Virus record (IMG/VR): IMGVR_UViG_3300047491_000541
DNA length: 20,000 nucleotides
Source of the DNA: an uncultured virus (IMG/VR IMGVR_UViG_3300047491_000541)
Lineage: Duplodnaviria; Heunggongvirae; Uroviricota; Caudoviricetes
Direction: 5' to 3' (one strand)
Part shown: positions 2,956-20,000 of the stretch, piece after piece
Position numbering within the stretch: position 1 is the first letter of the stretch
How the letters are laid out: each line of letters starts with the position of its first letter
The notes under the pieces: model-generated
The model's database searches: none
What the model saw: the letters and a program-made list of their open reading frames with translations, nothing else
What the model was told of the DNA's origin: nothing
Program-made: the position numbers and the translations under genes

Positions 2956-3019
2956 TCCTCATTTATCCCTTGTCATTCAAATCACATTACCAAATGGACG
3001 ATGAAATATAATTTATATT

Positions 3020-3816: not shown

Positions 3817-3840
3817 ACACTCGTTTGCCTACATCAACGA

Positions 3841-4590: not shown

Positions 4591-4884
4591 TCATCTAACC
4601 CTCTCATCATCGTAAACATAAACCCTCCCACCCGGAAAATTGCCGACAGACATAGTCCTGTCAAACTTGTATTCACAACGACAATACCCGTACTTCATCC
4701 ACTCTCTTAAATCACTGGCGCTCTGAAACACCGTCCTGCTCAAACATAGGGAACACTCCACCCAATACCAAGTCTCATGCCCTAAAGCCTCATTCAAAAC
4801 CATCCTAAGCCGATCTAGAGTCATGACCTTGAAAAAGGAAATCTCCCTATCTACTTCTTGCTCTGCTTGAACTATCCCGCCCAT
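4591..4884 (-). CDS. Hypothetical protein with CxxC/CxC motifs
   Basis: ORF track; VECSLC, YCRC. Confidence 0.6.
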   Translation of the reverse strand: MGGIVQAEQEVDREISFFKVMTLDRLRMVLNEALGHETWYWVECSLCLSRTVFQSASDLREWMKYGYCRCEYKFDRTMSVGNFPGGRVYVYDDERVR

Positions 4885-4999
4885 TCTTTACCTTTTTGTT
4901 TTTACTAAACCACTTGATGCTATCATACCCCTTCCGGTATCGATCTATATCCTTGACCCGACTCACTGACCCCTTGCCCGCCTCATGCTCTCCTATCAT
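4847..4999 (-). CDS. Small basic hypothetical protein
   Basis: ATG at 4999 with GAGGGGT RBS; AGKGS...YRKGYDSIKW. Confidence 0.55.
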   Translation of the reverse strand: MIGEHEAGKGSVSRVKDIDRYRKGYDSIKWFSKNKKVKNGRDSSSRARSR

Positions 5000-5230
5000 C
5001 TTACCCCTCTCCAAATAACTCTGATAAACCACTAAATCTTCCGCTTCATCCACCCATGTACAAAAATAGCCATTTTCCAAAACCTCGAAATTTTAAATTT
5101 TGAAACACCCTTTCTCTAAATATCTTCTTTCAACCATTTTACCCCATTTCCTAAAATGTAAATTTTATAAATTTCCGAAACGTAGAATAGGCCCCCGCTC
5201 TTGAAATTCATTCAGCTAGATTTATAGCTG

Positions 5231-5296
5231 TCCTATCCTATCCTATCCTGTTAAACTTACCCCTCTGATTATACCCTATCTCTGATTATACCCTAC
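5231..5296 (+). repeat. Short tandem repeats: (TCCTA)x~4 and 17-bp CTCTGATTATACCCTAY x2
   Basis: Seen at 5231-5249 and 5263-5279/5280-5296. Confidence 0.85.
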
Positions 5297-5519
5297 CCTC
5301 CGCTTTCACGATGATCCTCCCCCTCCCACAGACACCATCTCTGACGGATCTGCAGGCTTTTTATAATTTTAATGTGTTCCACCAAACTGTAAAATGAGCG
5401 TAATAATATAATAAGCATAGTTTTCGCCCTTGACGGACTACACACCATTCTACTCTGTAAATAGTTTGCAATTGAATCACTTATGAGATTTTACAAGCAT
5501 TTTTTACTTGATTCTGAAA

Positions 5520-5555
5520 GTGAGTGTAAATACCACTTTTCGTGAGTGTAAATAC
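5520..5555 (+). repeat. 14-bp direct repeat GTGAGTGTAAATAC x2, 22-bp period
   Basis: Copies at 5520-5533 and 5542-5555 in AT-rich non-coding region. Confidence 0.85.
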
Positions 5556-5635
5556 TTTCAAAAGTAAAGAAAAAAGTTTGGTTTTATACATCATAGGGGG
5601 ACTTGTAAGATTAACCCATTTTGGGTGTCACGTCC

Positions 5636-5848
5636 TCAGTAAGTCTTCGTTATCAGAACAGTTCTCTCCGAGTTTTTATCGCTAGGGATAGTGTCCTGCG
5701 GATACCACATAGTCGGCTCACTATCGAATGAAGTCAGCTTGTAGCCCTGACACCGCTTTGCAAAATGAGACTCCAACATGTGGATACATGTAATGCAATT
5801 TCTTGGATCAAAATTCCCCAGACCAACTTTGTCTTTTTTCTCCGACAT
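5636..5848 (-). CDS. Hypothetical CxxC protein
   Basis: ORF track; NCITCIH. Confidence 0.55.
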   Translation of the reverse strand: MSEKKDKVGLGNFDPRNCITCIHMLESHFAKRCQGYKLTSFDSEPTMWYPQDTIPSDKNSERTVLITKTY

Positions 5849-6386
5849 ATGCCTAGCTTTTTTGATAGTTTTTGTCTCTATTTATGTCCTTATATGATAC
5901 TACCCTTACTTTTACCCTTACTTAGTGATTATTACCCTTTCTCGCCTTCTAGGTGGGGGGGGTCAATTTCTATTAATTACAAGTGACGTATAAACTGAAG
6001 ATTTTTCTATAGTATAGGAGAACATCAATTTACAACAGCGTGTGGAAATATTATTATGGGTGTTTGATTTCGACCCATCTTTTTGGTTATTAGAGGGGTG
6101 TTGGTTTCATTGTGTCTGACTTCATGCGTCCTTTTTGGGGCATATAAGATTCGATGTCCCATCTGCGTGTTTCGGCTTAACAGGACAGAACAAGCGACCG
6201 TTGAACAAAAGGTGGAAACACCTTCATGTGTCACGGGCTACGGTAATAAATGCCCATCCAAGAACCGTTGAAGTAGATTCATGGTGGCGTTATGGTCATG
6301 CGGATGACGCTGACCACAGGCGGTGCTTCGTTTATGATATTTGGACGGGAGTATGAGGCTTTCCTGTTGCCGGGAATATTGTGGCT

Positions 6387-6923
6387 TTAATCATTGGTCC
6401 ACCTCCATTTTCTAAACAATGATTTTTGTGATTGAGCTTTAAATTCCGTATTTGTGAATGAGTGTCCGGCAGCGTTGGTATAGACTGGCAGGTTATTCGT
6501 CACATAGGCCAGATAAAATATTTTATTGACATCATTGGCAGCCAGAGCAGACGGGATAAAGGACCAGTCTACTTTGGCCATTTTGATGATTTGATCGGGA
6601 GCATTGGGGATCGGATTAGGCATAGCCTCAACGACGGTTGTATTACCGCCTCTGGCTGCGCTGAAAATCATAAGTGTGCAGATTAAGCCATAGAGGGTTT
6701 TGATTGAGAGTTTTTGCCCATTACTGGCAGTGACCATTAGGACGGCAAAGATGGCACTTAGTGACAGTGCTACGATAGCCGATGGCAAGACAGGGAAGGA
6801 CGAGCAAAGGCTCGTGGTGAAGGCCAGAACCATGGCTGAGCACGCTCCTGCCCCTACTACTGGCTTTGGACTGAGAAATTCGGACAGTTTGACTGCTTGT
6901 GAGGGTTCGACTGGTTCTGGCAT
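6387..6923 (-). CDS. Hypothetical membrane protein (about 3 TM segments)
   Basis: AAGGAG RBS; three hydrophobic stretches in N-terminal half. Confidence 0.75.
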   Translation of the reverse strand: MPEPVEPSQAVKLSEFLSPKPVVGAGACSAMVLAFTTSLCSSFPVLPSAIVALSLSAIFAVLMVTASNGQKLSIKTLYGLICTLMIFSAARGGNTTVVEAMPNPIPNAPDQIIKMAKVDWSFIPSALAANDVNKIFYLAYVTNNLPVYTNAAGHSFTNTEFKAQSQKSLFRKWRWTND

Positions 6924-6997
6924 GATTTTGGTCTCCTTGTTTTTGAGTTATCGTTCTATAGTGATAAATCGAAAAGGTCTGCCTGCAGGAGCCGAAT

Positions 6998-7273
6998 TCA
7001 GTTTAGCGTCATTCTTGGAGGATTAATTGGCGACGGCTCTGATGATTTAGATATAGCAGACTGACCATTAGGTTTGCAATAGCCTCCGCCAACGACGACC
7101 AATAATTTGACGGCAAAATACAAAAACAAAACAAAAATCAAACAGCCTAATGGCCCCCACCTGTCGTCGTCGTCTTCTGCTTCTTCTGCTTTATAGAGCC
7201 CGTACAGTTTTGCCACGTCGATGCAATGCTGACCCTCTGGAGTGGGTGGTTGTTCTGGGTTATCATCACTCAC
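6998..7273 (-). CDS. Hypothetical single-TM protein
   Basis: Probable GTG start 7273 with GAGGT RBS; acidic run then hydrophobic segment. Confidence 0.6.
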   Translation of the reverse strand: MSDDNPEQPPTPEGQHCIDVAKLYGLYKAEEAEDDDDRWGPLGCLIFVLFLYFAVKLLVVVGGGYCKPNGQSAISKSSEPSPINPPRMTLN

Positions 7274-8054
7274 TGAGATTACCTCTTCGTTGTCTCTTGC
7301 GAAAAGACCATTTATCAAAGCCATGAGATTCAGCCTTGATTTTGTCAAGAACTGGATGATCTTTTATTGATCCATCCCTTTTCACATCCCTCTTAGCCAG
7401 TTCATTTGTAAGATACCTCTCAATTGAATTAAATGCGGAAAATGGATCAATCCTCCGGTGCATCAGGACGACAGAAAGAACTGGATTTATGATAACTGAG
7501 GATGAATACTGGCATAGTCCATCCCTTCTCGCGTAATTAGCATCATCGCCCATCATTTCTGGAACACCGTCGGCATGACAGAAAATAGGGGCATTCAATT
7601 TACGATGCATTTCATCGATGGAGATTTTCTGAGCGACAGCATGACCGGGCAATTTTACGGCGGTAAAATCTATTGCGCCCCACGGCTTATCAGCTAGATC
7701 GAAAAGAGCCTTCATCCTTTTTTGGGGCGAGAAATCAAATGCATTTTTATCATTGATAATCTTGGACGGCAGATCATTATACGAGAAGACATAAGACTCC
7801 CGACCAGAAGTTGTGGTTATACGAGCCACTGGGATAGCTTTCCCGCAGAACCAAATGACAAAACCGAAAACGTCAACACCAGCAGGCTGCCTCTGAGGCT
7901 TATAAATCCGCTCGCCAAGGAGAACTGGAGAAGGAATGGCAAATTTGACATCAACTACTTTTGGTTTTCTTTCCCAAGAGTAGGTTTGATCTGACATCAT
8001 TTTATCACGAGCTAGATAGTCGTAATAGTCTTTGTATGTGCTAATTAGTTTCAC
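7266..8054 (-). CDS. Phage hypothetical protein
   Basis: 262 aa; ends MKLISTYKDYYD and HGFDKWSFRK resemble a phage hypothetical family as I recall it (not verified). Confidence 0.8.
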   Translation of the reverse strand: MKLISTYKDYYDYLARDKMMSDQTYSWERKPKVVDVKFAIPSPVLLGERIYKPQRQPAGVDVFGFVIWFCGKAIPVARITTTSGRESYVFSYNDLPSKIINDKNAFDFSPQKRMKALFDLADKPWGAIDFTAVKLPGHAVAQKISIDEMHRKLNAPIFCHADGVPEMMGDDANYARRDGLCQYSSSVIINPVLSVVLMHRRIDPFSAFNSIERYLTNELAKRDVKRDGSIKDHPVLDKIKAESHGFDKWSFRKRQRRGNLSE

Positions 8055-8512
8055 TCTTGTCTTACTTCCTGTTCGATAGGTCTATTTTCTACTAAATTGG
8101 TATGTCCATCGAGATAAAGAAAACGCACGGCATTAGTCCCCTGATAGTCCCCCGAACATACTGGACACTGAAATCTTGCATAGGTCGGAAGTCTTTTAAT
8201 GGAATCACATACTGGGCAAGCCGGACTTGAAAACTCGTCGGTTTGACAAATTGAGCAAAAAATTTGTTTGGTTGGTTCTGGATTAACTTTGAGTCCCTTA
8301 GATATGATTGACAACATCTTTTCCTTCTCCACTGGAGAGAATTCTCCTTCGGGTTTAAAGTTGACAGTCATACGGGAATAAGGCAAGGCAAGATATTGAG
8401 TGCCGTTCCCACCGACACAACCAGCCAAAATAAAACCAATAAACACGGTTGGCAACAATACCATCTTAAACATTCTCATCTTTTTATTCCTTTTTTTTAG
8501 ATAAAAACTCAT
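8051..8512 (-). CDS. Putative lipoprotein with three CxxC motifs
   Basis: Basic N-terminus, hydrophobic stretch, ILAGC lipobox; CSIC, CPVC, CPVC. Confidence 0.7.
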   Translation of the reverse strand: MSFYLKKRNKKMRMFKMVLLPTVFIGFILAGCVGGNGTQYLALPYSRMTVNFKPEGEFSPVEKEKMLSIISKGLKVNPEPTKQIFCSICQTDEFSSPACPVCDSIKRLPTYARFQCPVCSGDYQGTNAVRFLYLDGHTNLVENRPIEQEVRQE

Positions 8513-8757
8513 TCATGGTCATTATACCCCTCAGACATGTTTTTATGAGATTCTTTCTTCATCTCTCACGACGATTGTCCCTGAAGGTACTTTATAAAAC
8601 ATCCGTGGATGAATGTGATCCCATATCAATTGTTCCACATAGAACTTTACTAAAAACTACAGATTTTTCTTTAGTTTTCACAATCATGATCTTTCAGTTG
8701 ATATATCGGAAGAACAAAAAACTAAAGATTTTTCTTCACTTTTCTCATTTTACAATT

Positions 8758-9123
8758 TCATTCTGTCTGTCCAAGTGGATGCAAGATATGGATGACACCC
8801 CCTGCTGTGACGTGGAAATTTAAATGTTCAGGCAATTCTCGTAAACACAACTCTTGCAACTTAGACAGGATTGATTTCAAAAGTTCTTGACCAGACTTCA
8901 TCTTATTACTTCCACTGACATGAAGATAGAGTGTGTCATTATAATAATCCATAGAGACAATCATCCGGGTATTATCCTCAAAGTCGAAAATATTTTCCCG
9001 ATGATTTCCGGGGCGATCAGCACCCGCATTACACATCTTTTCAACGTCGTAGATTCGTTTCAGGGCAAACGGAAATCTTGCCGTCAGGTCTTGAATCGAT
9101 TCTTTTTTAAATGGCAATCCCAT
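8758..9123 (-). CDS. Hypothetical protein
   Basis: ORF track 121 aa. Confidence 0.75.
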   Translation of the reverse strand: MGLPFKKESIQDLTARFPFALKRIYDVEKMCNAGADRPGNHRENIFDFEDNTRMIVSMDYYNDTLYLHVSGSNKMKSGQELLKSILSKLQELCLRELPEHLNFHVTAGGVIHILHPLGQTE

Positions 9124-9214
9124 AAAGTAACACCTATCGGTAATATCTACAACGAACTAAGCACAATCTGAATCATAATGATGATTATGAGGAAAGTTGA
9201 TGTAATATCGTCAC

Positions 9215-9478
9215 TCATACTCTTCCGATCCTCACGGTGATTTTCGTATGATCAAGCGTAATGTCCATCTCGGTCATGTTGGCATCTCGAAGCACCTTGT
9301 CCAGAGTAATCGCAGCCGCCTGAGCGGTCGTGCTACTGAATCCAACAGGATCATACAAATCCTTTGCAATCGTCCGAACGCCCCTAGCTAGAGTCTCATC
9401 ACTCCATTCCAGAAATGTCGGGGCTGCACGCTCGGCATCTGTCAACGTCTTGTCAAAATCTTCCACTTTGGTGCTCAT
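9215..9478 (-). CDS. Hypothetical protein
   Basis: AAGGAG RBS; 87 aa. Confidence 0.75.
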   Translation of the reverse strand: MSTKVEDFDKTLTDAERAAPTFLEWSDETLARGVRTIAKDLYDPVGFSSTTAQAAAITLDKVLRDANMTEMDITLDHTKITVRIGRV

Positions 9479-9500
9479 GTCACAACTCCTTATTCTGTTT

Positions 9501-9677
9501 CTATTTCTTTTCTATTTCATCCAAGACGAGTTCCCAAACAGAATCCAGTGTCTCGTCTTCAGCCCAAGGAACATGCTTATCCGCCCATGTATCGAATGTG
9601 GCACGGCGAAATGAAGAATGCTTCATGCTTTTTACGAATGCCTTGGCTACATCAACGTTGATCGTGTTCTTTCCCAT
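9501..9677 (-). CDS. Hypothetical protein
   Basis: GGGAGG RBS before ATG 9677. Confidence 0.65.
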   Translation of the reverse strand: MGKNTINVDVAKAFVKSMKHSSFRRATFDTWADKHVPWAEDETLDSVWELVLDEIEKK

Positions 9678-9703
9678 AGACCCTCCCATAATCCCAGTGA
9701 ACA

Positions 9704-10300
9704 TCAATTGGAGATCACAAATGGTTTACCACAATAAGGGCAGAACGCCCAAGACTTCCAACACTCTTCGCTACAGGTGGACTTCCCGCAAAGAGTCATC
9801 GGCTCATACTCGATATGCCCTGAAATCATGTCGTCAGGCTGCCGTTCACACCTCATCCCACACTTCGGCTTCTCAACCAGTTCCTTGATCGTGTCCGCCA
9901 AAGCCTTCAATCCTGCCGGAGTATCCACATGGTAATGACCACAGGCAAGCCCGTGAAACCAATCGCGAGGGCTAGGACACCCACAATGACCATCGATCCT
10001 TACTTCCTGCCCAATAGCATTATGGAGTCTCTCTGCGGCTTTTACTTCGATCCCCGGTCCCTTGCAAACCCAGTAATTCCAAGACCGCTCGAATGTCCAG
10101 CCGTACAGTGAACCCATGATCGCTGACTTCACTTCGGCATTAAGATGTTGTCGACATTGATCCATGCCGCGACGAAGAAATTCGTAATTATTACGATGAC
10201 GAAGAAATTCGTGGTTGTCGACATTGATCCCTGCCGCTTTCAACTCAGCAGCCAGGACATCATCTGTCTTCAAAACCCCAGCCATATTAGGAAAACTCAT
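9704..10300 (-). CDS. Hypothetical phage protein with C-terminal zinc-ribbon-like motif
   Basis: VRIDGHCGCPSP, YHVDTPAGL, FCPYCGK. Confidence 0.8.
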   Translation of the reverse strand: MSFPNMAGVLKTDDVLAAELKAAGINVDNHEFLRHRNNYEFLRRGMDQCRQHLNAEVKSAIMGSLYGWTFERSWNYWVCKGPGIEVKAAERLHNAIGQEVRIDGHCGCPSPRDWFHGLACGHYHVDTPAGLKALADTIKELVEKPKCGMRCERQPDDMISGHIEYEPMTLCGKSTCSEECWKSWAFCPYCGKPFVISN

Positions 10301-10301
10301 T

Positions 10302-10526
10302 TCATGCCTCCAATCTAATATTCACGAATCCGGGTTGATCTGCACAAGGCTCACGCTCTGGTCCACCCTTAAGGTCTTTATTGCCCTTGCGAACGATTGC
10401 CCACCCGTTACCAGTCCAACACTCCTTCTGAGTGTTGGCGAATTCCTTGACCTCTTCATCTGTCCAATCCTCTGGAACACAGACTTGCATGTCTGACACG
10501 TTGATATACATTATCTTTGGTTTCAT
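10302..10526 (-). CDS. Hypothetical protein
   Basis: AAGGGAG RBS; MQVCVPEDWTDEEV. Confidence 0.75.
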   Translation of the reverse strand: MKPKIMYINVSDMQVCVPEDWTDEEVKEFANTQKECWTGNGWAIVRKGNKDLKGGPEREPCADQPGFVNIRLEA

Positions 10527-10527
10527 T

Positions 10528-10761
10528 TTATTCTCCCTTCTTAGAAAGAAGTTGTGGATCATCCGAAATGCCACCAGACAACCCGACCATATACTCCACA
10601 AAAGATGATCTTGTCTCAAGAGTAATCGGCAATGATGAAAAAACTGTATGAGTCCCGTAGTGTGGCTGAACTCCAATTAAGAAACCAGTGTCAATACATT
10701 TGATCACTGGTTTCTTTCCAGTTCTCTTTTCGATCTCGTTTACCACTTCATCACAAGTCAT
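10528..10761 (-). CDS. Hypothetical protein
   Basis: ORF track; RBS; operon packing. Confidence 0.65.
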   Translation of the reverse strand: MTCDEVVNEIEKRTGKKPVIKCIDTGFLIGVQPHYGTHTVFSSLPITLETRSSFVEYMVGLSGGISDDPQLLSKKGE

Positions 10762-10963
10762 AAATTATCCTTCCTTTGTCTCCATGATTCCTCGCTAAGC
10801 TCTCTTTGGCATCGTAGAATTTCGCAAGTCGTTCAACATATAATTATACACTTGTGCAAACCATCTGGATAGTATGATTCGTCCTCGCATGTGCATGGAA
10901 AGATAATGTATTCACCATCCTCTCCAACACTGTCTTGTTCGACCACTCACTCATAATCAACTC

Positions 10964-11260
10964 CTATTGCTGATCCTCTGGGACCACAACTATCTCCAAC
11001 ACTTTGTAGTGCAGGATTTTGAAAGGCGTCCGAACACGCTCTGACTCTGCAATCGCAAGATCAATTGCGAGAGTAACTCTGGCAACATCCACCTCTTCCC
11101 CATGCTTATAGTCAATAATCATCTTGGTAGGAGTCCCTACTCCCGTTAGTCCAAGCCCTGCCGCCGCCATGAAGTCCGAGACGTTTCGATCTCCTTGCAG
11201 AATCTCGACAATGGCTCGGTAATGTCCTTTAACTTGAGTCGTCTCTTTTTCTGAATCCAT
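10964..11260 (-). CDS. Hypothetical protein
   Basis: GAGGGG RBS before ATG 11260. Confidence 0.7.
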   Translation of the reverse strand: MDSEKETTQVKGHYRAIVEILQGDRNVSDFMAAAGLGLTGVGTPTKMIIDYKHGEEVDVARVTLAIDLAIAESERVRTPFKILHYKVLEIVVVPEDQQ

Positions 11261-11465
11261 AACCCCCTCATTGATCTTCAAATGCTCCCGACAACACCAT
11301 GGATGTCTTTGTTCCATCCACTGCCACTAAGACGCCTCCTGTATCAAAAGCCTGTGTTGCCCCTTCCAGAGCCCACCGATGATACTCTGTATCTATAGCG
11401 ACTTCGCACCATCCAACACGATCCTCTTGGCCTAGACATTACCGATTTCTGGTCAGCATAAGGAG

Positions 11466-11723
11466 TTATTTCATCTTGGCTATCACTTCCATAGCTATTG
11501 CCTTGCACTCTCGCCAGATTTTACGGCTGCCAATGTCATTCGGAACAAAGGGCTTCCTGAATCTCCAACACGGAAAAGATAAACAGACTTGCTCGACCTT
11601 GGACGAGTCTCCGCCACTCATCTCCACGATGACTCCGGCAATGCGAGCCTTTTCTTCCATAGACTTTTTGGCCGCCTCTCCATATAACGTGAGCGTTATT
11701 GCGATTTCGTTTGTCATTTTCAT
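11466..11723 (-). CDS. Hypothetical protein, weak resemblance to Hydrolase_2 N-terminus
   Basis: AAGGAGG RBS; AITLTLYGEA and FPCW recall the LARTIYGEA...QFSCW pattern (weak). Confidence 0.6.
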   Translation of the reverse strand: MKMTNEIAITLTLYGEAAKKSMEEKARIAGVIVEMSGGDSSKVEQVCLSFPCWRFRKPFVPNDIGSRKIWRECKAIAMEVIAKMK

Positions 11724-11737
11724 GTCCTCCTTGATAG

Positions 11738-12193
11738 TCACCAACCAACACTTAACGGTTGGGAACTCGCAAATGTTGAATAAAAAGTAGTGCCACGATG
11801 TTCTATTTTGGGCAATTCTTTCCGAGGCTGCTTGGCAAGTCGGTAGATACCATCAACAGTCACATAAAGATGTCCAGTCTCTACTAATTCTGCCAACCCC
11901 ACGTCCCAATTGCGCCGCTTGGTTTTATCGGTGGCAATTTCTCTGGCAATAACGCCCATCATGGCATCTGATGAAGCCGAGCCTCCAAGAGACTTGATGA
12001 TATCTAAGAACATCTTTCCGCAAGGACTTACCTCGTCTTTTCCAGGTCGTCCGATTTTAGTAGGTAGTTTTCTCATAGATTTTCTCACAGATTTTCCCTT
12101 AAACGAATTCGGTCGCTTACAACCGACACTCTGCCATACTGTTGGAGCGACCTCGAACATGCTCGACAATCGCAATGCAGTGCGGGCCGACAC
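11738..12193 (-). CDS. Hypothetical basic protein, possible winged helix
   Basis: ORF track; LAELVETGHLYVTVDGIYRL. Confidence 0.6.
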   Translation of the reverse strand: MSARTALRLSSMFEVAPTVWQSVGCKRPNSFKGKSVRKSMRKLPTKIGRPGKDEVSPCGKMFLDIIKSLGGSASSDAMMGVIAREIATDKTKRRNWDVGLAELVETGHLYVTVDGIYRLAKQPRKELPKIEHRGTTFYSTFASSQPLSVGW

Positions 12194-12209
12194 CTCAACA
12201 GTAGAGCCA

Positions 12210-12458
12210 TCAGGTGTCTGATATCCACTCCCCCCTTTTATTTCTCAGAAACTCCAGCATCTTTATGCCATCCATCCTACACGAACAACGTTGAGTCTTT
12301 CCACGACCTACATACGGGACTTCTCCTCCATTTTCCTTGAAAACCGGACAGAGATTGCAATGACCTTGCCCGCTTTTCTCACACGTCTCTTGTAATGCAG
12401 TCACGATGTCGGATTCTTCAATCGGCTCCTTGTACACCAGTTTCATCAGAATGCTCAT
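12210..12458 (-). CDS. Hypothetical Cys-rich protein
   Basis: GGAGG RBS, ATGA overlap; CNLCP, CSC. Confidence 0.7.
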   Translation of the reverse strand: MSILMKLVYKEPIEESDIVTALQETCEKSGQGHCNLCPVFKENGGEVPYVGRGKTQRCSCRMDGIKMLEFLRNKRGEWISDT

Positions 12459-12838
12459 ACTTCCTCCACTTGATCACAGTTACACCATCTCTCCTCGTCT
12501 TCACGGACCCATGTCGCACAACGCTTGCAACGAAACCCGACATGCCCAGAAGACCTCTCAAACACCCAGTCACCCTTGCTACTCTGAGACCATGACCGGC
12601 GATCATGCTCCAAATCCTTGGAGACCTTGTTGTCAGTAACGATGTCTACCTCGTCAAAGTCAGGATAGTACCGGCAGCAACCGTTGCTCATGGAAAGTCT
12701 GCGCTTCTCCCAGTCAATCGTGATGATTCGGCAGACGCCAGGATCAGGCGATCGCCGCTTGTATCGAGCTAAAAACGGAGGATCTGCCAACAAAATGCAG
12801 GGTACAGTTGCCCCGCTCGCGTTTTCCTGTTCACTCAT
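12455..12838 (-). CDS. Hypothetical protein, probable two-cassette fusion
   Basis: AAGGAG RBS and ATG lie in loop of site 12785-12882; internal GTT core at 12629; C-terminal CKRC...CNC. Confidence 0.7.
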   Translation of the reverse strand: MSEQENASGATVPCILLADPPFLARYKRRSPDPGVCRIITIDWEKRRLSMSNGCCRYYPDFDEVDIVTDNKVSKDLEHDRRSWSQSSKGDWVFERSSGHVGFRCKRCATWVREDEERWCNCDQVEEV

Positions 12839-12882
12839 GGTGTTCTCCTTTGGGCAACTGCCCCTGATTTCTGAAGTTGGCA
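12785..12882 (+). mobile_element. attC-like site (98 bp) with RBS and start codon in loop
   Basis: TGCCAAC...GTTGGCA complementary ends; stem CAGGG-TA-CAGTTGCCC / GGGCAACTG-C-CCCTG. Confidence 0.8.
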
Positions 12883-12961
12883 ATCAATGCATGGTCTAGC
12901 GGCTCTTCTCTCCCCATGCACGGCGTAGTATGGGGTTGCCCCCTCCACCGCTCAGCCGGAT

Positions 12962-13018
12962 TGCCAAAAATCGTGTCAAAACTACCTCGCTTCGCTCGGA
13001 ATGTACCTGTGGAGCGGC
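12962..13018 (+). mobile_element. Degenerate attC-like site
   Basis: GATTGCCAAA pairs 9/10 with GTTGGCAATC at 12876; CTCGCTTCGCTCGG centre; right core decayed. Confidence 0.5.
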
Positions 13019-13227
13019 AGCTCAATGCCGCGCTTTGCAAGTAAGACTGCGAACCACTCCGCGCGAGTGTTGTTGTATTTCGGCCCCATCTCGAAAGCCG
13101 CGTCAATAAGGATGCCAGCAAGTTCGTCGCGTTCGGCGTCGTTCAACATGCCCAAGTCGAGCGTCGTCGACGATTCGACCACTTGCACGGTTACGAAACT
13201 GCTTGTGTGTCTGACCTTGATTTCCAT
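12982..13227 (-). CDS. Hypothetical protein
   Basis: AAGGAG RBS; 81 aa. Confidence 0.75.
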   Translation of the reverse strand: MEIKVRHTSSFVTVQVVESSTTLDLGMLNDAERDELAGILIDAAFEMGPKYNNTRAEWFAVLLAKRGIELPLHRYIPSEAR

Positions 13228-13240
13228 CGTTTGTCTCCTT

Positions 13241-13540
13241 TCAGTGTTTGTCCGTACGGCTGTCCGTGCGCCACACCAATACTATGCGGCTGTCCGTGCG
13301 CCACACCAATACTATGATCAGCACTAACAGCGATACCAAGGCCGTGAAGCAGAGGGCGCCGACGCAGAGGGCGAGCACCGTGAACCAGCGATCACCGCCG
13401 GCGGAGTGATTCAGCAAGGCGGCGATGCCGGCGGCCATCGTGAATGCACCGGCGGCCATCGTGTAAGCGATGATCCATGAAAGCGAGGGCCATTCGAGGA
13501 GGGCCACGAGAAACAGGTGTTTGAGGTTCTTCTTATTCAT
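13241..13540 (-). CDS. Hypothetical membrane protein
   Basis: AAGGAG RBS; 2-3 hydrophobic segments; duplicated IVLVWRTDSR. Confidence 0.7.
   Translation of the reverse strand: MNKKNLKHLFLVALLEWPSLSWIIAYTMAAGAFTMAAGIAALLNHSAGGDRWFTVLALCVGALCFTALVSLLVLIIVLVWRTDSRIVLVWRTDSRTDKH
13257..13316 (+). repeat. Perfect 30-bp tandem duplication
   Basis: CGGCTGTCCGTGCGCCACACCAATACTATG x2. Confidence 0.95.
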
Positions 13541-13568
13541 CGAACTCCTTTTTGGGGGTGGCAAAGAG

Positions 13569-14231
13569 TCACCTCTTGGCGTTGGGCTTCGTAACCCTAA
13601 GTGTCTTAACCAACCGATAGTTGTCCGAGTCGAAGTCCTCAGAGCAACCAGCTCGACCTACATTGCGACCAGCGACGCACACATGCAGTGTGCCGCGGTG
13701 CCGACTCTCATAAACCTCGACCAAGTTGCCGACCACTGCCATAACGCAATCAATTGGCGGATAAGGCTTGCCATCCGGGCCAGTAACATTCCTGTCGATT
13801 TCGATGCTGATGTGTCGTACTACGTCGAACCACACAAAATGCTTTTTCCCGAAACCGAGCAACCGTTTGATCTTCTTCCACATGTTCTTCATCGTTGTCC
13901 TTTCGTTAGATTCTTGCCCGAACAATCGCTTGAGCCAACGGCAAGTACGCCATGGCTCACCTCCCGTGTTGGCCTTGCGCGTAACCCACGTCACCAAGCC
14001 CAACGGCGTGTACAGATTCCAGTATCTGGCCGTGCCGTTCGCGCCGCCGTACTTGCAAGCGACCCAGCCGCTGCGTGCACGGTACACGTCCAACGTGAGG
14101 CGTCCGACGTGCAGGCGAATCAGCCGCTTGCCCCACGTCGAGACGTTCAGAGATCGCCAGCCGTAGGTGTGCCTATCCGCTTCGGCAGAGTACGGGTCCA
14201 GTGTTGCATCAATCGTCGTTGTCCCGTTCAT
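13569..14231 (-). CDS. Hypothetical ORF spanning two cassettes (internal start 13892)
   Basis: AAAGGA RBS before both 14231 and 13892; reads through site 13917-13974. Confidence 0.65.
   Translation of the reverse strand: MNGTTTIDATLDPYSAEADRHTYGWRSLNVSTWGKRLIRLHVGRLTLDVYRARSGWVACKYGGANGTARYWNLYTPLGLVTWVTRKANTGGEPWRTCRWLKRLFGQESNERTTMKNMWKKIKRLLGFGKKHFVWFDVVRHISIEIDRNVTGPDGKPYPPIDCVMAVVGNLVEVYESRHRGTLHVCVAGRNVGRAGCSEDFDSDNYRLVKTLRVTKPNAKR
13917..13974 (+). mobile_element. attC-like site (58 bp) inside coding sequence
   Basis: CCCGAAC...TGAGCCA-ACGGC-AAGTAC-GCCA-TGGCTCA...GTTGGCC hairpin. Confidence 0.75.
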
Positions 14232-14261: not shown

Positions 14262-14318
14262 GGCCAACCAGCGCATCGAAGCGACGACTACCCGCCGTGC
14301 CTCACGCTTTTGTTATTG
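14262..14318 (+). mobile_element. attC-like site (57 bp)
   Basis: GGCCAAC-CAGCG-CATCGAAG ... CCTCACG-CTTTT-GTTATTG; left end pairs 9/9 with 13968. Confidence 0.75.
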
Positions 14319-14894
14319 CCGCATATCGGACTGTTGGGCTGTCAGCATATCAGCCAGTCCCGCTGCGATGGCCTCGTGCCCTGCGCGATTCGGGTGTATG
14401 TCGCGTCCGTCAAAGTGATGAGGCAGAAGGACACTTCTCGTGTCGAAGGTCTCAACACCATCCGGCAATGCGCCGCATATAGCAGCGTTGAGCAACGGGC
14501 ACGCGATTGCTGACCTGATGTCTCGTCCGCAAAACGGGTCTGCGTACAGCAGAACAATAGTGCGTGCCTTTCGGACGGTCTCCACCGTGCGCCGCAACGC
14601 GGACACCCCGGCGCTGACCTCATCCGGCGTCACGGTTCCGTCTGCTATCGCCGCAAAAGCGTCGTTGCCGAGCAGCGAAATGATAACCACGTCGGCGGAT
14701 GTCTGTGCGGCACGAGTCAAGCGTCCATCGAAATTATCGGCCCACTGCGCGGCCGTGCTGCCAGCGATGGCCTGCCGCAGGTCGTCGGCAATGCCAAGCA
14801 TCATCGGCCAGCCCATGCGGTCGCCCTCTCCAGCAACCACGGCTGAGGACCACGAATCCCCGACAACTAGCGCATTCAGTGAGATCGTCTTCAT
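14313..14894 (-). CDS. SGNH/GDSL hydrolase (esterase/deacetylase)
   Basis: VVGDSW block I, AIAGST block II, LLGND block III, DIHPN block V; ATG 14894 overlaps upstream stop. Confidence 0.9.
   Translation of the reverse strand: MKTISLNALVVGDSWSSAVVAGEGDRMGWPMMLGIADDLRQAIAGSTAAQWADNFDGRLTRAAQTSADVVIISLLGNDAFAAIADGTVTPDEVSAGVSALRRTVETVRKARTIVLLYADPFCGRDIRSAIACPLLNAAICGALPDGVETFDTRSVLLPHHFDGRDIHPNRAGHEAIAAGLADMLTAQQSDMRQ
14319..14339 (+). repeat. Conserved attI-like/half-site motif copy 3
   Basis: CCGCATATCGGACT-GTTGGGC; GTT at 14333. Confidence 0.8.
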
Positions 14895-15361
14895 TCCTTG
14901 TCCCCTCCTACATCGTTCCGCCGAGGAACATCCCCGGCGGTATTGAGGCGTATCGCGCTGTTGGCCTTGCGGATGGCCTGCACCACTTCGCCCAAGGCGA
15001 CTGATCGTCCCTTGAACCACTCTGCGCGAATTGCGTTGCCTGCGGCTTCCTGCTGCTGCGCGTGTTCCCACGCCAGATCGGCAGAGGATTGAACCTCGGC
15101 CAACACTGCGGCCAACACTGCGTCCAAGGTACGCGGCTGCACCGCGCCCGTGACACTGGCGTTCGGCTTCAATGTCCCGCCGTATGCGTGGTCTGGACAG
15201 TATGTCTTTCCGTTGCTGAGGCACTGCCATCCACGCTTCTGCATGACCGGCTCAACGGCACGCTGCCCGTCAAACTCTCCGTTGACGTACTCAGACTCGA
15301 CCGAACATCCTCCAAAGTCGCACTGCAACTTGCTTTGCCCACGTCCTACGATTGTGCCCAT
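14891..15361 (-). CDS. Hypothetical two-module protein (Zn-finger-like plus helical) fused through an attC-like site
   Basis: AAGGAGGT RBS; CDFGGC...YCPDH, then linker encoded by 15110-15167. Confidence 0.75.
   Translation of the reverse strand: MGTIVGRGQSKLQCDFGGCSVESEYVNGEFDGQRAVEPVMQKRGWQCLSNGKTYCPDHAYGGTLKPNASVTGAVQPRTLDAVLAAVLAEVQSSADLAWEHAQQQEAAGNAIRAEWFKGRSVALGEVVQAIRKANSAIRLNTAGDVPRRNDVGGDKE
14946..14966 (+). repeat. Conserved attI-like/half-site motif copy 4 (divergent)
   Basis: AGGCGTATCGCGCT-GTTGGCC; lies in a 59-bp block homologous to 130-188. Confidence 0.7.
15110..15167 (+). mobile_element. attC-like site (58 bp) inside coding sequence
   Basis: GGCCAAC-ACTGC-GTC[C]AAGG-TACGCGG-CTGCA-CCGCGC-CCGTGAC-ACTGGC-GTTCGGC; canonical spacers and extra C. 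Confidence 0.85.
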
Positions 15362-15844: not shown

Positions 15845-16453
15845 TCACTCCTCCTTCGCGCTGGCTGGTTTTACGTCAACCGGAACCAAGTTTGTGTCGA
15901 TGCGAGCCTCATTGGATAGCAGTTTTCGCACGAAGTTGTCCGCCTCGGTCCAGATTCCCCCCTTGAGACTACCCGCCGTAACCACGTTTGTGCAGAGGCC
16001 AGCCTCATCGTCTAGCGGTTTTTCGTTTTGGTCAGACACGGTCCACATACCATCCTTGTACATACCCACACTCACTAGGTTTGTGCCGAGGCTAATCTTA
16101 CCGTATAACATCACTGTGATGTGGTCAGATATACCGAAGACGGGCCACTTGCGCATGTATACCGTGACCATGTTTGTGTCGCTTGTTCCATTGAGACTGC
16201 CCATCGTAACCCTTTTTGTCACGGTGACATGCTCTTCGGCTAGTATTCTTATGGTGGGGTCCGGAAAGATGTCGTGGGCCTGACTCATCGGAAGCCATTT
16301 GTCGGTGCGATCATCCTCGGCTGGCGGGTTTCTCTGTAGTTTCAGCTTGTCACTGCCTACCGCCACCCCCAGCGCAAAGCAAATCACGTAGCTAATTGCC
16401 CTCGCCACATACCGCACAACCCGCCCACGCTGCTTAAATGTCTTCACTGTCAT
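15845..16453 (-). CDS. Hypothetical membrane-anchored protein
   Basis: AAAGGGGTGA RBS; N-terminal hydrophobic segment. Confidence 0.75.
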   Translation of the reverse strand: MTVKTFKQRGRVVRYVARAISYVICFALGVAVGSDKLKLQRNPPAEDDRTDKWLPMSQAHDIFPDPTIRILAEEHVTVTKRVTMGSLNGTSDTNMVTVYMRKWPVFGISDHITVMLYGKISLGTNLVSVGMYKDGMWTVSDQNEKPLDDEAGLCTNVVTAGSLKGGIWTEADNFVRKLLSNEARIDTNLVPVDVKPASAKEE

Positions 16454-16502
16454 ACAATCACCCCTTTCTCATTACCGCCCCGCCACGGCCATTTATTGGC
16501 CG
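16450..16502 (+). repeat. Leader repeat A copy 1 (hairpin, RBS, ATG on minus strand)
   Basis: Identical to 17087-17138 except one T. Confidence 0.95.
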
Positions 16503-16504
16503 TT

Positions 16505-16526
16505 GCGCATATCGGGCTAGTTGGGC
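16505..16526 (+). repeat. Conserved attI-like/half-site motif copy 5 (1-nt insertion)
   Basis: GCGCATATCGGGCT[A]GTTGGGC; GTT at 16520. Confidence 0.75.
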
Positions 16527-16831
16527 GTACAGGGTATTCCTTGCTGCGTCAGGAACACCGATCCGTGCCCATACTTCATGGCGTATCGTTGAACAGCCAT
16601 CCAGAACGAGTCCACGTTTCCGTTGCACTTCGCGGACCAGTTCGCCATGCGAAACGTAAGTCCTTGCGTGCCCTCTACGCAGTAATGCGTCCGGCCATAA
16701 TCACCAGGCGCCCACTCCACCAGCGCGATGAAGTTCAGGCCGTGCGCCTGCGCGTCCTTCGCCAGTTCGGACAGTTTCGGGGCAATCACTTCATCGTAGT
16801 ATTTCTCTCCGTCTGTCACTTGCCACCTCAA
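16517..16831 (-). CDS. Hypothetical protein
   Basis: ORF track; EKYYDEVIAPKL...GNVDSF; start uncertain. Confidence 0.75.
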   Translation of the reverse strand: MRWQVTDGEKYYDEVIAPKLSELAKDAQAHGLNFIALVEWAPGDYGRTHYCVEGTQGLTFRMANWSAKCNGNVDSFWMAVQRYAMKYGHGSVFLTQQGIPCTPN

Positions 16832-16839
16832 TTCATTAC

Positions 16840-16896
16840 GCCCAACAAGCCGTCGTGATCGACGGCTACCCGCCGCGCTTCATGCTTTCGTTGTGC
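16840..16896 (+). mobile_element. attC-like site (57 bp)
   Basis: GCCCAAC...GCTTCAT-GCTTTC-GTTGTGC; left end pairs 10/10 with 16520, right end 11/11 with 17043. Confidence 0.8.
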
Positions 16897-17090
16897 GTCT
16901 GCTTACGAAGTTCCGTCATGCACTTGGCGCACATCCTGATTTCAAGGTGCCGATGTTCGTCGTTGGACCGCACCACCCACACCATGCGCTCGGTGTTGCG
17001 CGTGCAGAAATTGCATCCGCCACTGTTTGCCGTTGACTCCCAAGACGCACAACAAGTTCGTCGAGGGCATTCCTCATTCGCTGCGCTCAT
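16866..17090 (-). CDS. Zinc-ribbon microprotein
   Basis: CNFC...CAKC; start supplied by leader repeat A. Confidence 0.75.
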   Translation of the reverse strand: MSAANEECPRRTCCASWESTANSGGCNFCTRNTERMVWVVRSNDEHRHLEIRMCAKCMTELRKQTHNESMKRGG

Positions 17091-17138
17091 ACAATCACCC
17101 CTTTCTCATTACCGCCCCGCCACGGCCATTATTGGCCG
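17087..17138 (+). repeat. Leader repeat A copy 2
   Basis: See 16450-16502; lies between GCACAAC (17047) and GTTAGGC (17151). Confidence 0.95.
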
Positions 17139-17151
17139 GTAGCATTGGCGG

Positions 17152-17463
17152 TTAGGCTTGTTGCCATTCAGCCCCACAGTCCAGACATCGCGGCGGGTCC
17201 GACATGTGCGACACGCGACAGACGTGCCCTGTCGAACCAGCCACTTGAGCGGACGGAGTACCGCCGATCACTTGCACGTCCGCATCCGCGAGAGCCGCCC
17301 GCGCGAGGTCGCGCATGGCGCAGGCTGTCGTGTCGCCGTCCGCGAGCGCGTTGGCAGCGAACCGGCAGTCCTCTGAACATGCCATCAACCTATCGCACTC
17401 CGGGCAGGTCGCAATTGAGACAAGCGCGGCGTGCAATCCCTCGCACTTGCTGCATGTAGTCAT
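17152..17463 (-). CDS. Cys-rich protein, probable fusion across site 17231-17284
   Basis: CSKC, CPEC, CLDC; stop lies in GCCTAAC. Confidence 0.7.
   Translation of the reverse strand: MTTCSKCEGLHAALVSIATCPECDRLMACSEDCRFAANALADGDTTACAMRDLARAALADADVQVIGGTPSAQVAGSTGHVCRVSHMSDPPRCLDCGAEWQQA
17231..17284 (+). mobile_element. Degenerate attC-like site inside coding sequence
   Basis: GTCGAAC-CAGCC-ACTTGAGC-GG...CCGCCGATCAC-TTGCAC-GTCCGCA. Confidence 0.55.
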
Positions 17464-17515
17464 GACGTTTCCCCCATCCCCATTATTTGCCGTTCTTGCC
17501 GCATATCGGGCTGTT
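17437..17515 (+). repeat. Leader repeat B copy 1 (includes motif copy 6, RBS, MTTCSKCEG codons)
   Basis: 78/79 identical to 17947-18025. Confidence 0.95.
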
Positions 17516-17518
17516 CTG

Positions 17519-17680
17519 CTAATTGGCGTCGGAGTATCGCCCGCACGAGCCGCAATAGCGATGTATCTTCCCCGGCCTTTCCGGCGACGACAGGCGAAGC
17601 ATGTGTGTGCTCTTACAGAACTGGCACCGTCGAACAGGCCTCTTGAATTGACCGCTCACAGCGCGTTTATTTTTAGTCAT
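17519..17680 (-). CDS. Zinc-ribbon microprotein
   Basis: ATG 17680 after GGGGAGGG; CQFC...CGSC. Confidence 0.7.
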   Translation of the reverse strand: MTKNKRAVSGQFKRPVRRCQFCKSTHMLRLSSPERPGKIHRYCGSCGRYSDAN

Positions 17681-17731
17681 GACGTTTTCCCTCCCCATTA
17701 TTGGACGTTTCCGCATATCGGGCTGTTCGGC
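17674..17731 (+). repeat. Leader repeat B divergent copy (includes motif copy 7)
   Basis: TAGTCATGACGTTT...TCCCCATTATT...CCGCATATCGGGCT-GTTCGGC. Confidence 0.85.
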
Positions 17732-17973
17732 AATACAAGCCGGTAGCACGGGAACTCGCGGTCCATATCCAGCACCGGCAACATCGTTGACTTGCGAAAC
17801 CGAATGACATGCTGCGAGTCAACCGCGCGGGCGTGCCACTCGGTTCTGGTCTCTTTGCACAGGATGCCGTCTTTCGTCGGCTGATAGCATCCATAAGACG
17901 GAACAAGCCGAACCATGCGGTCCATATTACTCCCTCCCTGCGGTCTTCCCTCGCACTTGCTGCATGTAGTCAT
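17698..17973 (-). CDS. Hypothetical protein (alternative start MDRMV)
   Basis: First 9 aa identical to 17152..17463; ends PNSPICGNVQ in the motif. Confidence 0.65.
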   Translation of the reverse strand: MTTCSKCEGRPQGGSNMDRMVRLVPSYGCYQPTKDGILCKETRTEWHARAVDSQHVIRFRKSTMLPVLDMDREFPCYRLVLPNSPICGNVQ

Positions 17974-18029
17974 GACGTTTCCCCCATCCCCATTATTTGC
18001 CGTTCTTGCCGCGTATCGGGCTGTTGGCG
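17947..18029 (+). repeat. Leader repeat B copy 2 (includes motif copy 8)
   Basis: See 17437-17515; GTT at 18023. Confidence 0.95.
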
Positions 18030-18331
18030 ATCACCCGATTCTCTCCAGCACCAGCCGGTATTTTGTCACGTCCTTGGCCCACAGGATGGGCGGCCACTTG
18101 AGCCGGTGTGTTGGGCTGATACAACTTGAACCCCCACGCATTGCATTTGGCTGTAGCCTCTTCTTCTGACTTTTCGCCGGAGCATAAAGCCACCTTGTTG
18201 CGTGCTGAAACAGTACACCATCCCGTCTTGTGCGCTCGCTGGTGCTGGTTACAGTACACCCATGCGTCACCAAACTCTTTGAAGTCTTCCGTTTCGCGTT
18301 CCACCCGATGCTTCTTGAATCTCACGTTCAT
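17993..18331 (-). CDS. Hypothetical protein with tail reading through two GTT sites
   Basis: AGGAGG RBS; WVYCNQHQRAHKTGWC; sites at 18110 and 18023. Confidence 0.75.
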   Translation of the reverse strand: MNVRFKKHRVERETEDFKEFGDAWVYCNQHQRAHKTGWCTVSARNKVALCSGEKSEEEATAKCNAWGFKLYQPNTPAQVAAHPVGQGRDKIPAGAGENRVIANSPIRGKNGK

Positions 18332-18407: not shown

Positions 18408-18420
18408 CCGCCCTTACACC

Positions 18421-18452
18421 CATACATTACCAAAATCCTGCCAAAATAAGGA
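18421..18452 (-). promoter_or_regulatory. Putative phage promoter (TCCTTA-17 bp-TAATGT)
   Basis: 24/30 identical to 1150-1179. Confidence 0.55.
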
Positions 18453-18488
18453 ATGAATCAGCATGCCAATGAATCCGCGCACTCGTGT

Positions 18489-19248: not shown

Positions 19249-19545
19249 TCAACCTTCGAGCAGTGTACCGCGCACCTCCCAGTATCCGGTGCGTCCATCC
19301 TTGCGCGAGTGCCTACGGCAAGGCAACCGGTCGCACAATTCTTGGTCTTCAAGAGCGAAGCACACCACGCAAGGCGATGTCCGTTCCATGTAGGACGCCT
19401 CGACGAACTCCAGCCGCCGCGTATCCAGCGCCGAGTTCTGATCTTCCGCCACCTCGACGCCACACGGCGCAACCGGCTGGGCGGCTGGCGGGCAAATAGC
19501 GTCAAGGATTCCTCGGACAGTCTGATTCACATGTCCGTTGCTCAC
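19249..19545 (-). CDS. Hypothetical Cys-rich protein
   Basis: ATG overlaps upstream gene end; CVVC...LCDRLPC. Confidence 0.65.
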   Translation of the reverse strand: MSNGHVNQTVRGILDAICPPAAQPVAPCGVEVAEDQNSALDTRRLEFVEASYMERTSPCVVCFALEDQELCDRLPCRRHSRKDGRTGYWEVRGTLLEG

Positions 19546-19742
19546 ATCGCACCGCCTTTCCGCTGATCGTCGGGCGTCTTCTCATCCCGCTTTGCTCTGG
19601 CGATCCAATACCGCAGCTTGGATACCCCGCTTTTCCCCTCGGCTTCGGCGCTGTCGAAATCTACAATCGCCACCTCGACACCCTTGCTTGCATACGCGAT
19701 CTCTACCACGCCACCACGTACGCTTATGACTACCTGGTTCAT
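19542..19742 (-). CDS. Hypothetical protein
   Basis: AAGGAG RBS; VVISVRGGVV...VAIVDFD. Confidence 0.75.
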   Translation of the reverse strand: MNQVVISVRGGVVEIAYASKGVEVAIVDFDSAEAEGKSGVSKLRYWIARAKRDEKTPDDQRKGGAM

Positions 19743-19767
19743 CGTCTTTCTCCTTTGGTTACGGAAC

Positions 19768-19825
19768 GCCCAGCAAGGCGCTCCCGTTGGCTCACTTCGT
19801 TTGCAATTGAGCTTGGTTGTTGGGC
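19768..19825 (+). mobile_element. attC-like site (58 bp)
   Basis: GCCCAGC-AAGGC-GCTCCCGT ... ATTGAGC-TTGGTT-GTTGGGC; 5/6 spacers. Confidence 0.8.
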
Positions 19826-19983
19826 GTATTACGTTCTAACCGCCTTTTCCCCATCGCTCGCCGCAGTATGTTCTCGGCGAACAACACATTCAACGTTTGG
19901 TGGCACAGTGACTCGGCATCCCGAGGACATACGTCGTCGGCAAGAACCACCTCGTCCCACACCTGTTGAAATGCGTTGGTCAT
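19792..19983 (-). CDS. Hypothetical protein (may start beyond window edge)
   Basis: ORF track; stop lies within site 19768-19825. Confidence 0.55.
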   Translation of the reverse strand: MTNAFQQVWDEVVLADDVCPRDAESLCHQTLNVLFAENILRRAMGKRRLERNTPNNQAQLQTK

Positions 19984-20000
19984 TATCAGGTCAATGTGCT

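Follow-up and report, generated by a model that had tools for sequence, protein, structure and literature searches.

A hairpin enclosing a start codon at a mosaic junction in an uncultured phage: a possible mRNA leader structure

Introduction

Several phage leaders are known to pair with the early codons of the gene that they precede, including the alternative structures of lambda cIII and the RNase III sites of lambda and T7. Structured elements also stand between genes in T4-type phages, where they form promoter-early stem-loop cassettes, or PeSLs (PMC2839356, PMC4122927). In integrons, attC sites follow the extended consensus RYYYAAC/GTTRRRY, and their bottom strand carries extrahelical bases on one arm, near L'', as described in PMC5027507. 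Clusters of attC sites that lack an integrase, called CALINs and made up of at least 2 sites, are known in phages (PMC9892861).

Here, we analyze a stretch of 20,000 nt (the window) from a contig of at least 73 kb. An original prediction, made from the letters of this DNA, described an attC-like hairpin whose loop holds a ribosome-binding site and a start codon, proposed that a recombination site doubles there as a translation-initiation module and may form a regulatory mRNA hairpin, and pointed to three further loci of similar layout. We find that the hairpin itself is well supported and sits at the seam between shared and strain-specific DNA, and that the three further loci are of a different kind.

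Results

Small genes, most without a family match, fill the window

The window contains ~48 small minus-strand ORFs, many of which overlap stop to start. Matches to PHROGs were found for 4 of 29 ORFs in one set and 0 of 24 in another, and Pfam matches for 6 of 48 at E <= 0.01, with two of these below the curated cut-off. The genes that can be named encode an AAA_33 kinase-like ATPase, an N6_N4 DNA methylase, a cupin and a GDSL hydrolase, and the product of 9704-10300 shares 53% identity with proteins from two jumbo Ralstonia phages, RP12 and RP31. No recombinase family was found among the window ORFs scanned, and the window contains no detectable tRNAs. Its DNA occurs in lake and freshwater metagenome runs, and we read the element as an uncultured phage.

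A stable hairpin encloses the start of gene B

The features at the center of this study are as follows.

12785 to 12882, minus strand: 98-nt imperfect hairpin, with 5' arm 12882-12852, 38-nt loop 12851-12814 and 3' arm 12813-12785
12845 to 12850, minus strand: Shine-Dalgarno sequence AAGGAG in the hairpin loop, 6 nt ahead of the start codon
12455 to 12838, minus strand: gene B, 127 aa, with its ATG (12838-12836) in the hairpin loop

Along the minus strand from 12882 to 12785, the hairpin reads TGCCAAC, TTCA, GAAAT, CAGGG, G and CAGTTGCCC, then the 38-nt loop AAAGGAGAACACCATGAGTGAACAGGAAAACGCGAGCG, and then GGGCAACTG, TA, CCCTG, C, ATTTT and GTTGGCA. The outer stem, TGCCAAC/GTTGGCA, has 7 bp and is followed by the 4-nt bulge TTCA on the 5' arm. 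Inward of this bulge, GAAAT pairs with ATTTT, a C is bulged, CAGGG pairs with CCCTG, a G faces TA in an internal loop, and CAGTTGCCC pairs with GGGCAACTG, which brings the total to ~27 pairs; 3 extra pairs are possible between 12885-12883 and 12783-12781. The 3' arm corresponds to codons 9-18 of gene B (GATVPCILLA), and the claim that early codons are read from one arm of the hairpin is thus borne out.

The predicted layout of AAC...GTT ends and a long inner stem around the ribosome-binding site and ATG was recovered by folding the sequence both as RNA and as single-stranded DNA. As RNA, the hairpin folds at -38.9 kcal/mol, compared with -25.2 +/- 3.2 kcal/mol for shuffled sequences (z -4.37; 0/200 shuffles as good). 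As DNA, the gene strand folds at -19.7 kcal/mol (z -3.36; 0/200 shuffles as good) and the other strand at -18.0 kcal/mol (z -2.84; 2/200 shuffles as good), which makes the gene strand the more stable DNA fold. The hairpin still forms in a 246-nt context, and in the partition function of a 286-nt context, it dominates the ensemble with stem pair probabilities of 0.90-1.00, the Shine-Dalgarno sequence having a mean probability of being paired of 0.16.

The hairpin is strong yet not unique within the window. It ranks 9th among the non-overlapping minus-strand structures in an Lfold z-scan of the window (z -4.38), and z < -4 is reached by 8 of 996 100-nt windows (15 shuffles each). Searches against Rfam returned 0 matches at the gathering score over the whole window and 0 at E <= 5 in 12600-13450, and no sigma-70-like promoter was found in 12300-13700. 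In one RNA run, a single contig matches the window, with < 90% likeness, at 2636-2677, and the hairpin region is not covered.

Two other structures of the window are described here in their own right. The strongest local structure lies at 10668-10725 and has a 12-bp perfect stem, AAGAAACCAGTG/CACTGGTTTCTT, with a plus-strand z of -8.0 and minus-strand values of -4.6 to -7.2; it probably acts as a terminator in both directions between genes. The second is a 127-nt structure at 709-835 (z -5.1), whose closing stem GGAGAACATG/ACGTGTTCTC takes up a GGAG and the ATG at 828. This possible start is thus sequestered, compared with the exposed start of gene B.

The start codon of gene B lies inside the loop

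In the source annotation, gene B (P0001) is a protein of 78 aa that covers residues 50-127 only and starts at ATG 12691. A full HMMER search of metagenome proteins yielded 210 relatives at E <= 1e-3, of which 35 have E <= 1e-10. The alignments of P0002-P0036 all lie inside residues 4-88 of the 127-aa reading, starting at residue 12 in P0003, P0004, P0014 and P0036 and at residue 4 in P0006. Because relatives align there, the residues upstream of 50 are coding, and the 78-aa call is truncated. The duplex with the anti-Shine-Dalgarno sequence gives a consistent picture: it reaches -8.9 kcal/mol for ATG 12838 at 6-nt spacing, compared with +0.5, -2.1 and +0.9 kcal/mol at the nearby TTG codons 12883, 12793 and 12790, respectively, and -6.9 kcal/mol for ATG 12691, whose GGGAG lies ~15 nt upstream. 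These values support the site of ATG 12838 as the only good ribosome-binding site. With relatives aligning from residue 4 and the sole good Shine-Dalgarno sequence at ATG 12838, the placement of the ribosome-binding site and true start in the loop holds; we asked whether the true start falls outside the hairpin, and it lies inside.

Gene B consists of two small domains. The N-domain (~residues 12-75) carries the motif ARYKxRxPDPGxCxIxSIDWE...SNGxCRYFPxFDEV, and the Cys-rich C-domain (residues 81-126) has four cysteines in the pattern CxxC...CxC. Both domains are also found singly or in other fusions among the 210 metagenome proteins. Five residues (R29, P31, G34, C36 and F61) are invariant in an alignment of 23 sequences, in which the residues of codons 9-15 fall in a poorly conserved N-terminal tail. 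Neither domain has a family match in Pfam or PHROGs, and tblastn with gene B against phage and plasmid collections gave no match. The corrected reading therefore mends a mis-called start in a widespread two-domain family of unknown function.

The hairpin straddles the seam between shared and strain-specific DNA

Upstream of gene B, the following features adjoin the hairpin.

12877 to 13000, minus strand: unit U, 124 nt, comprising the last 19 nt of gene A and the intergenic region
12982 to 13227, minus strand: gene A, 81 aa, conserved in related metagenome elements apart from its C-terminus
13257 to 13316, minus strand: 30-nt exact tandem repeat in 2 copies (family D16), directly upstream of gene A

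We placed contigs of three DNA runs from two studies on the window at a likeness of at least 85%. The window's own contig spans 1-12918 at single depth (63 in X1), and from ~1335 to 12673, no other contig of at least 85% likeness adds depth. The bin 12674-13340 has ~5x the neighboring depth, and depth is also high in 16009-18009 and 19344-20000. One joint leads from 13000 to 12877 through 16 other letters and is present in all three runs at a depth of 113-137; a second leads from 13242 to 12879 through 10 letters. Similarity ends between 12876 and 12877 at the first joint and within 12876-12879 at the second, and the contig breakpoints thus lie 0-3 bases from AA|C (TGCCAA|C on the gene strand), which is where cutting by an integron integrase would be expected. 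The variant junction sequences were compared by eye.

Left of this seam, ~1335-12876 forms an ~11.5-kb block with a GC content of 0.37-0.49, compared with 0.52-0.61 in the flanks, and is represented in the three runs by the window's own contig only. This low-GC block is a strain-specific accessory block, and it includes an orphan N6_N4 DNA methylase (1309-2139) and the cupin (3289-3816). The word TGCCAAC occurs again at 1339-1345, near the return of extra depth (the boundary falls between 1194 and ~1335), a proximity with a chance of ~5% given the 6 copies on that strand. Word counts show no over-representation of TTGGCA, GGCAAC or GCCAAC.

Unit U recurs in other contexts on other metagenome contigs. 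Its last 6 nt are the TGCCAA of the hairpin outer stem, and the inner 19 bp come from gene B's own, unique leader, paired with codons 9-15. In its two other contexts, the letters at this junction read T|TTGGCA and GTC|GGCA, not G|TT. Unit U also has a 9-bp inverted repeat of its own, TTGGCAATC (12877-12885) and GATTGCCAA (12959-12967), and its end may thus be conserved for its own reasons.

Gene A has 12 relatives (P0152-P0163, on contigs of up to 25 kb) with 70-93% identity, which diverge past GIELP. A word related to the D16 repeat (GCACGG..GTAGTATGG) lies in the opposite orientation at 12908-12929, directly downstream of gene A. Judged by sequence, the repeat and this word could be binding sites that bracket gene A.

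Two homologous loci differ in the pairing around the start

A metagenome scan for gene B loci recovered only two, L001 and L002. Scans of viral contigs with genes A and B, with the hairpin word, with the pattern of motif D1 (see below) and with the alignments A2 and A3 gave no match, as did scans of genome contigs, and no window-like DNA was found in phage or plasmid collections.

L001 is 75% identical over gene B residues 16-70, as a domain inside a 233-aa ORF. It carries TTGTTGGCAGATC (codons L-L-A-D) as well as GGGCAAC and GTACCC in the same order as the window; neither a partner arm nor an enclosing hairpin is present (z +0.3). Since L001 has the outer 3' arm without the hairpin, this arm is ancestral coding sequence rather than the import of a mobile site. 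L002 has 69% amino acid identity to gene B, a start at TTG 31, behind AAAGAGGGAGG, and a leader that can be aligned with that of the window's gene B. Its predicted fold has a 7-bp stem, AGGGACA/UGUCCCU, around the ribosome-binding site and start, with the 3' half located three codons past LLSD, not ahead of it. In the model, this stem would be a relocated partner; with z -0.9 and 37/200 shuffles as good, it is not significant alone, and the contig begins at the stem. Our look for compensatory changes thus covers two homologous loci only, L001 without a hairpin and L002 cut at the stem.

Similarity to attC sites is partial

For comparison with attC sites, whose features include a central spacer left unpaired between the R and L boxes, we drew on PMC5027507 and on PMC9892861 (section 3.4, Table 2 and supplement Table S3). 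The outer stem resembles a pair of R boxes, as TGCCAAC and GTTGGCA carry AAC...GTT and are complementary at 7/7 positions. Such pairs are common in the window, with 40 sites at <= 1 mismatch (80 over both strands) compared with 40.9 +/- 10 over both strands in shuffled sequence. Each box fits the extended consensus at 5/7 positions. On the strand whose 5' arm contains AAC, the bulged C and TA are confined to the 3' arm, and when TJE1_attC2, a validated phage site (NC_019930, L003 1016-1075), was run through the same script, its bulges fell on the same arm. The spacer beside the R box has 4 unpaired nt on one arm vs 0 on the other, and the bulges are spaced by 5 bp, compared with 6 bp in TJE1_attC2.

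When the window's 161 AAC..GTT candidates were folded, the R box was closed in 72 strand-folds, and in 15 the stem ran unbranched for at least 16 bp. The hairpin at 12785-12882 surpasses all of these in stem length (26 and 30 bp) and folds at the lowest energy, and none of the 161 is a second comparable AAC..GTT-closed hairpin in the 20-kb window. This absence is weak evidence because the scan recovered 1/3 reported TJE1 sites. No integrase family was matched by the 29 + 24 ORFs searched in PHROGs or the 48 searched in Pfam, and within the 20-kb window, we see neither an array nor an integrase. The placement also differs from that of an attC site: the hairpin is at the 5' end of gene B and holds its Shine-Dalgarno sequence, ATG and codons 1-18, and gene B is on the bottom-like strand, whereas a cassette ORF is expected on the top strand, upstream of the site. 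The membership of the hairpin among attC sites is thus not shown.

The three further loci share another upstream motif

The layouts thought to be similar, at 17047-17157, 17629-17731 and 17907-18029, do not fold as start-enclosing hairpins. The first has z -3.37, which is due to two distinct local hairpins that flank the start; the second has z -0.29 (73/200 shuffles as good) and the third z +0.99 (169/200 shuffles as good). The AAC noted at these loci is the CCAAC of a motif that we name D1, and the rest derives from repeated leaders of families D4, D6 and D7. The layouts at 17629-17731 and 17907-18029 arise because D1 copies lie there, and that at 17047-17157 because of a 57-nt D7 leader. 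The idea that the hairpin is one of several such sites is therefore not upheld, as the other three loci fold differently and share another upstream motif.

162 to 190, 613 to 641, 14312 to 14340, 14939 to 14967, 17492 to 17520, 17704 to 17732 and 18002 to 18030, all minus strand: seven clear copies of motif D1, ~29 nt, consensus CCAACAGYCCGATATGCGGCAAKAAC, PWM scores of 37-44.5 bits
17087 to 17143, minus strand: 57-nt repeated leader (family D7), with a second copy at 16450-16506 and a local hairpin, ACGGCCAATAATGGCCGT, ahead of the ribosome-binding site

The D1 copies lie 27-90 nt ahead of start codons, often with a local stem-loop next and then the ribosome-binding site. They overlap upstream ORFs in different frames and are thus conserved as DNA or RNA, not as protein. 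No sigma-70 promoter consensus is seen in D1. A weak candidate at 16498-16526 (minus strand) scores 11.5 bits, below the best of 20 shuffles (12.2). We also considered the 5' arm of the hairpin as a degenerate copy and rejected this, as no PWM score > 8 occurs there. Several metagenome joints (168, 640, 14941/14942, 16503 and 16514) fall within D1 copies or within the weak candidate, and some link copy to copy, such as 16503 to 14942. Joints like these often arise at repeats; at the least, they show that related genomes carry D1 beside other neighbors. By analogy with PeSLs, D1 may be a promoter-type cassette through which genes are shuffled.

Other repeats occur in the window. The paralogous small genes 17152-17463 and 17698-17973 share a 79-nt leader and first codons (family D4, 99% identity), and their Cys-rich products both start with MTTCSKCEG. 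A 48-nt unit, family D5, with the perfect palindrome ACCGAA(N)TTCGGT occurs at 1140-1187, 11423-11470 and 18411-18458. Its sequence suggests an operator serving three leftward transcription units, and one metagenome joint ends at 18412, in a D5 copy.

Discussion

We tentatively favor, with a confidence that stays somewhat short of an even chance, a model in which 12785-12882 is the mRNA leader hairpin of gene B at a mosaic junction. The structure and stability of the hairpin and the positions of the start and of the seam are established; that it acts as a regulatory mRNA hairpin is plausible. In the model, gene B would be the first gene of the strain-specific block on a phage-like contig, and the ~24 nt of its gene-specific 5' leader, together with the last 6-7 nt of unit U, would pair with codons 9-18. 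The resulting ~27-bp interrupted helix would leave the Shine-Dalgarno sequence and AUG single-stranded in the 38-nt loop. The RNA would likely serve either to shield or mark the 5' part of the message, since a long interrupted helix resembles an RNase III-type substrate, or to tune initiation, because a ribosome would have to enter a closed loop before unwinding the helix. The sole strongly predicted conformation leaves the Shine-Dalgarno sequence and AUG exposed, and a simple on/off switch is thus not seen. The poorly conserved codons 9-15 leave room for co-variation with the leader. The related leader and start-enclosing fold of L002 speak weakly for this model, and the lack of a second attC-like site and of an integrase family among the window ORFs scanned also favors it; L001, which has no such hairpin, speaks against it. 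In the outer stem, the end of unit U pairs with the Leu-Leu-Ala codons, each conserved independently of the other, and this could be a coincidence. Since the helix lies where shared meets unique DNA, the recombination that brought the two together may have produced it in part, and the AAC/GTT ends, one-sided bulges and AA|C breakpoint fit a DNA site equally well.

These last features lead to a second explanation, which we consider unlikely: that the hairpin is a reversed attC-like recombination site acting as single-stranded DNA, with the gene strand in the layout of the recombinogenic bottom strand. Such a site would stand ahead of its gene and carry the ribosome-binding site, start and first 18 codons of gene B, and gene B, or the block that it heads, would be moved along with its own start by crossover at AA|C (12877|12876). 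The 98-nt total length, the ends complementary over 7 bp with AAC...GTT, the C and TA bulges confined to the 3' arm as in the bottom strand (PMC5027507) and in TJE1_attC2, and the greater stability of the gene strand than of its complement all agree with it. So do the contigs of 3 runs and 2 studies that lose similarity at 12877 and once at 12876-12879, the single depth left of the seam compared with ~5x to the right, the repeated TGCCAAC at 1339-1345, and the precedent of phage attC clusters (PMC9892861). However, the boxes fit at only 5/7 positions each, the spacer is 4 vs 0 nt, the bulge spacing is 5 vs 6 bp, the site is a singleton among 161 candidates (in a scan of low sensitivity), and no integrase family appears among the scanned ORFs. 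Moreover, the T|TTGGCA and GTC|GGCA contexts of unit U are unlike the uniform crossovers of integrons, the outer 3' arm consists of conserved LLA codons found in L001 without a partner, and the unique block extends leftward for ~11.5 kb, far above cassette size. Extended to a whole phage-adapted system of reversed cassettes, in which a single-stranded DNA site doubles as a ribosome-loading region and swaps entire gene blocks, the idea is likewise one to which we give little credence; the D1 junctions would then be a second, homology-based layer of shuffling in that genome.

A joining event could also have left a quasi-palindrome without function, formed by template switching or inverted duplication of the first codons as unit U met gene B, and tolerated because the start codon stays exposed. 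We regard this as doubtful, though it deserves serious weight: the two arms are nearly reverse complements of each other, with 18 matches, one indel and one small replacement, which is the look of a recent inverted copy. The position at a mosaic seam, the lack of a hairpin in L001 as the closest homologue, and the finding that similar z values are not rare (8/996 windows at z < -4, with the hairpin 9th on its strand) also fit. Yet a 27-bp helix across a translated region would be expected to decay and to burden translation if unselected, its imperfections are bulges rather than mismatches, so that pairing is preserved, and L002 weakly keeps an enclosing stem with a different partner. Finally, a transcription attenuator can be drawn in which the unit U words UUGGCAAUC (12967-12958) and GGGCAAC (12941-12935) pair with the 5' arm and the freed 3' arm forms a small hairpin at 12816-12797, followed by AUUUUGUUGG. 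The complementary words are present and a terminator-like site is flagged at 12816-12797, but the 4 terminator-like matches are not a significant enrichment over the 1.2 +/- 1.1 in shuffled sequence, the alternative pairs have a probability of 0.00 in the ensemble, the two upstream pairings cross and cannot both exist in a nested fold, and the U-run is weak. We consider an attenuator very improbable.

Compared with the leaders of lambda cIII and the RNase III sites, the hairpin is alike in pairing a leader with early codons and in having a helix of a length that would suit a double-strand-specific RNase. It differs in that the ribosome-binding site and AUG are exposed and no credible alternative fold is predicted. 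If the hairpin acts as RNA, it would be a further example of phage leader structure.

If it is instead a reversed attC-like site, a freshwater phage would join the few phages with integron-type sites, and a recombination site and a translation start would form one unit. With integron attC sites and CALINs, as described in PMC9892861 and PMC5027507, the hairpin shares an imperfect fold of ~100 nt, 7 complementary closing bases with AAC...GTT, unpaired bases on one arm, one more stable strand and a module junction at or beside AA|C. It differs from them in its 5/7 boxes, its one-armed spacer and 5-bp bulge spacing, its place ahead of a gene and on the "wrong" strand with a start and 18 codons inside, the lack of a second site or integrase family in 20 kb, and the other unit U junctions, which are not G|TT.

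With PeSLs, as outlined in PMC2839356 and PMC4122927, the likeness is in the window as a whole rather than in the hairpin. The hairpin has no D1 (PWM <= 8), encloses the start and is not of the terminator type. D1 differs in having no sigma-70 consensus. The window, by comparison, is likewise a one-strand run of small, mostly unknown genes, with a conserved upstream motif, D1, between which and the ribosome-binding site a local stem-loop often lies, and its related contigs join D1 copies or leave them, as in the gene shuffling of regulatory cassettes. On either reading of the hairpin, the window appears to show gene shuffling at short conserved upstream motifs, a process known to date chiefly from T4-type phages.
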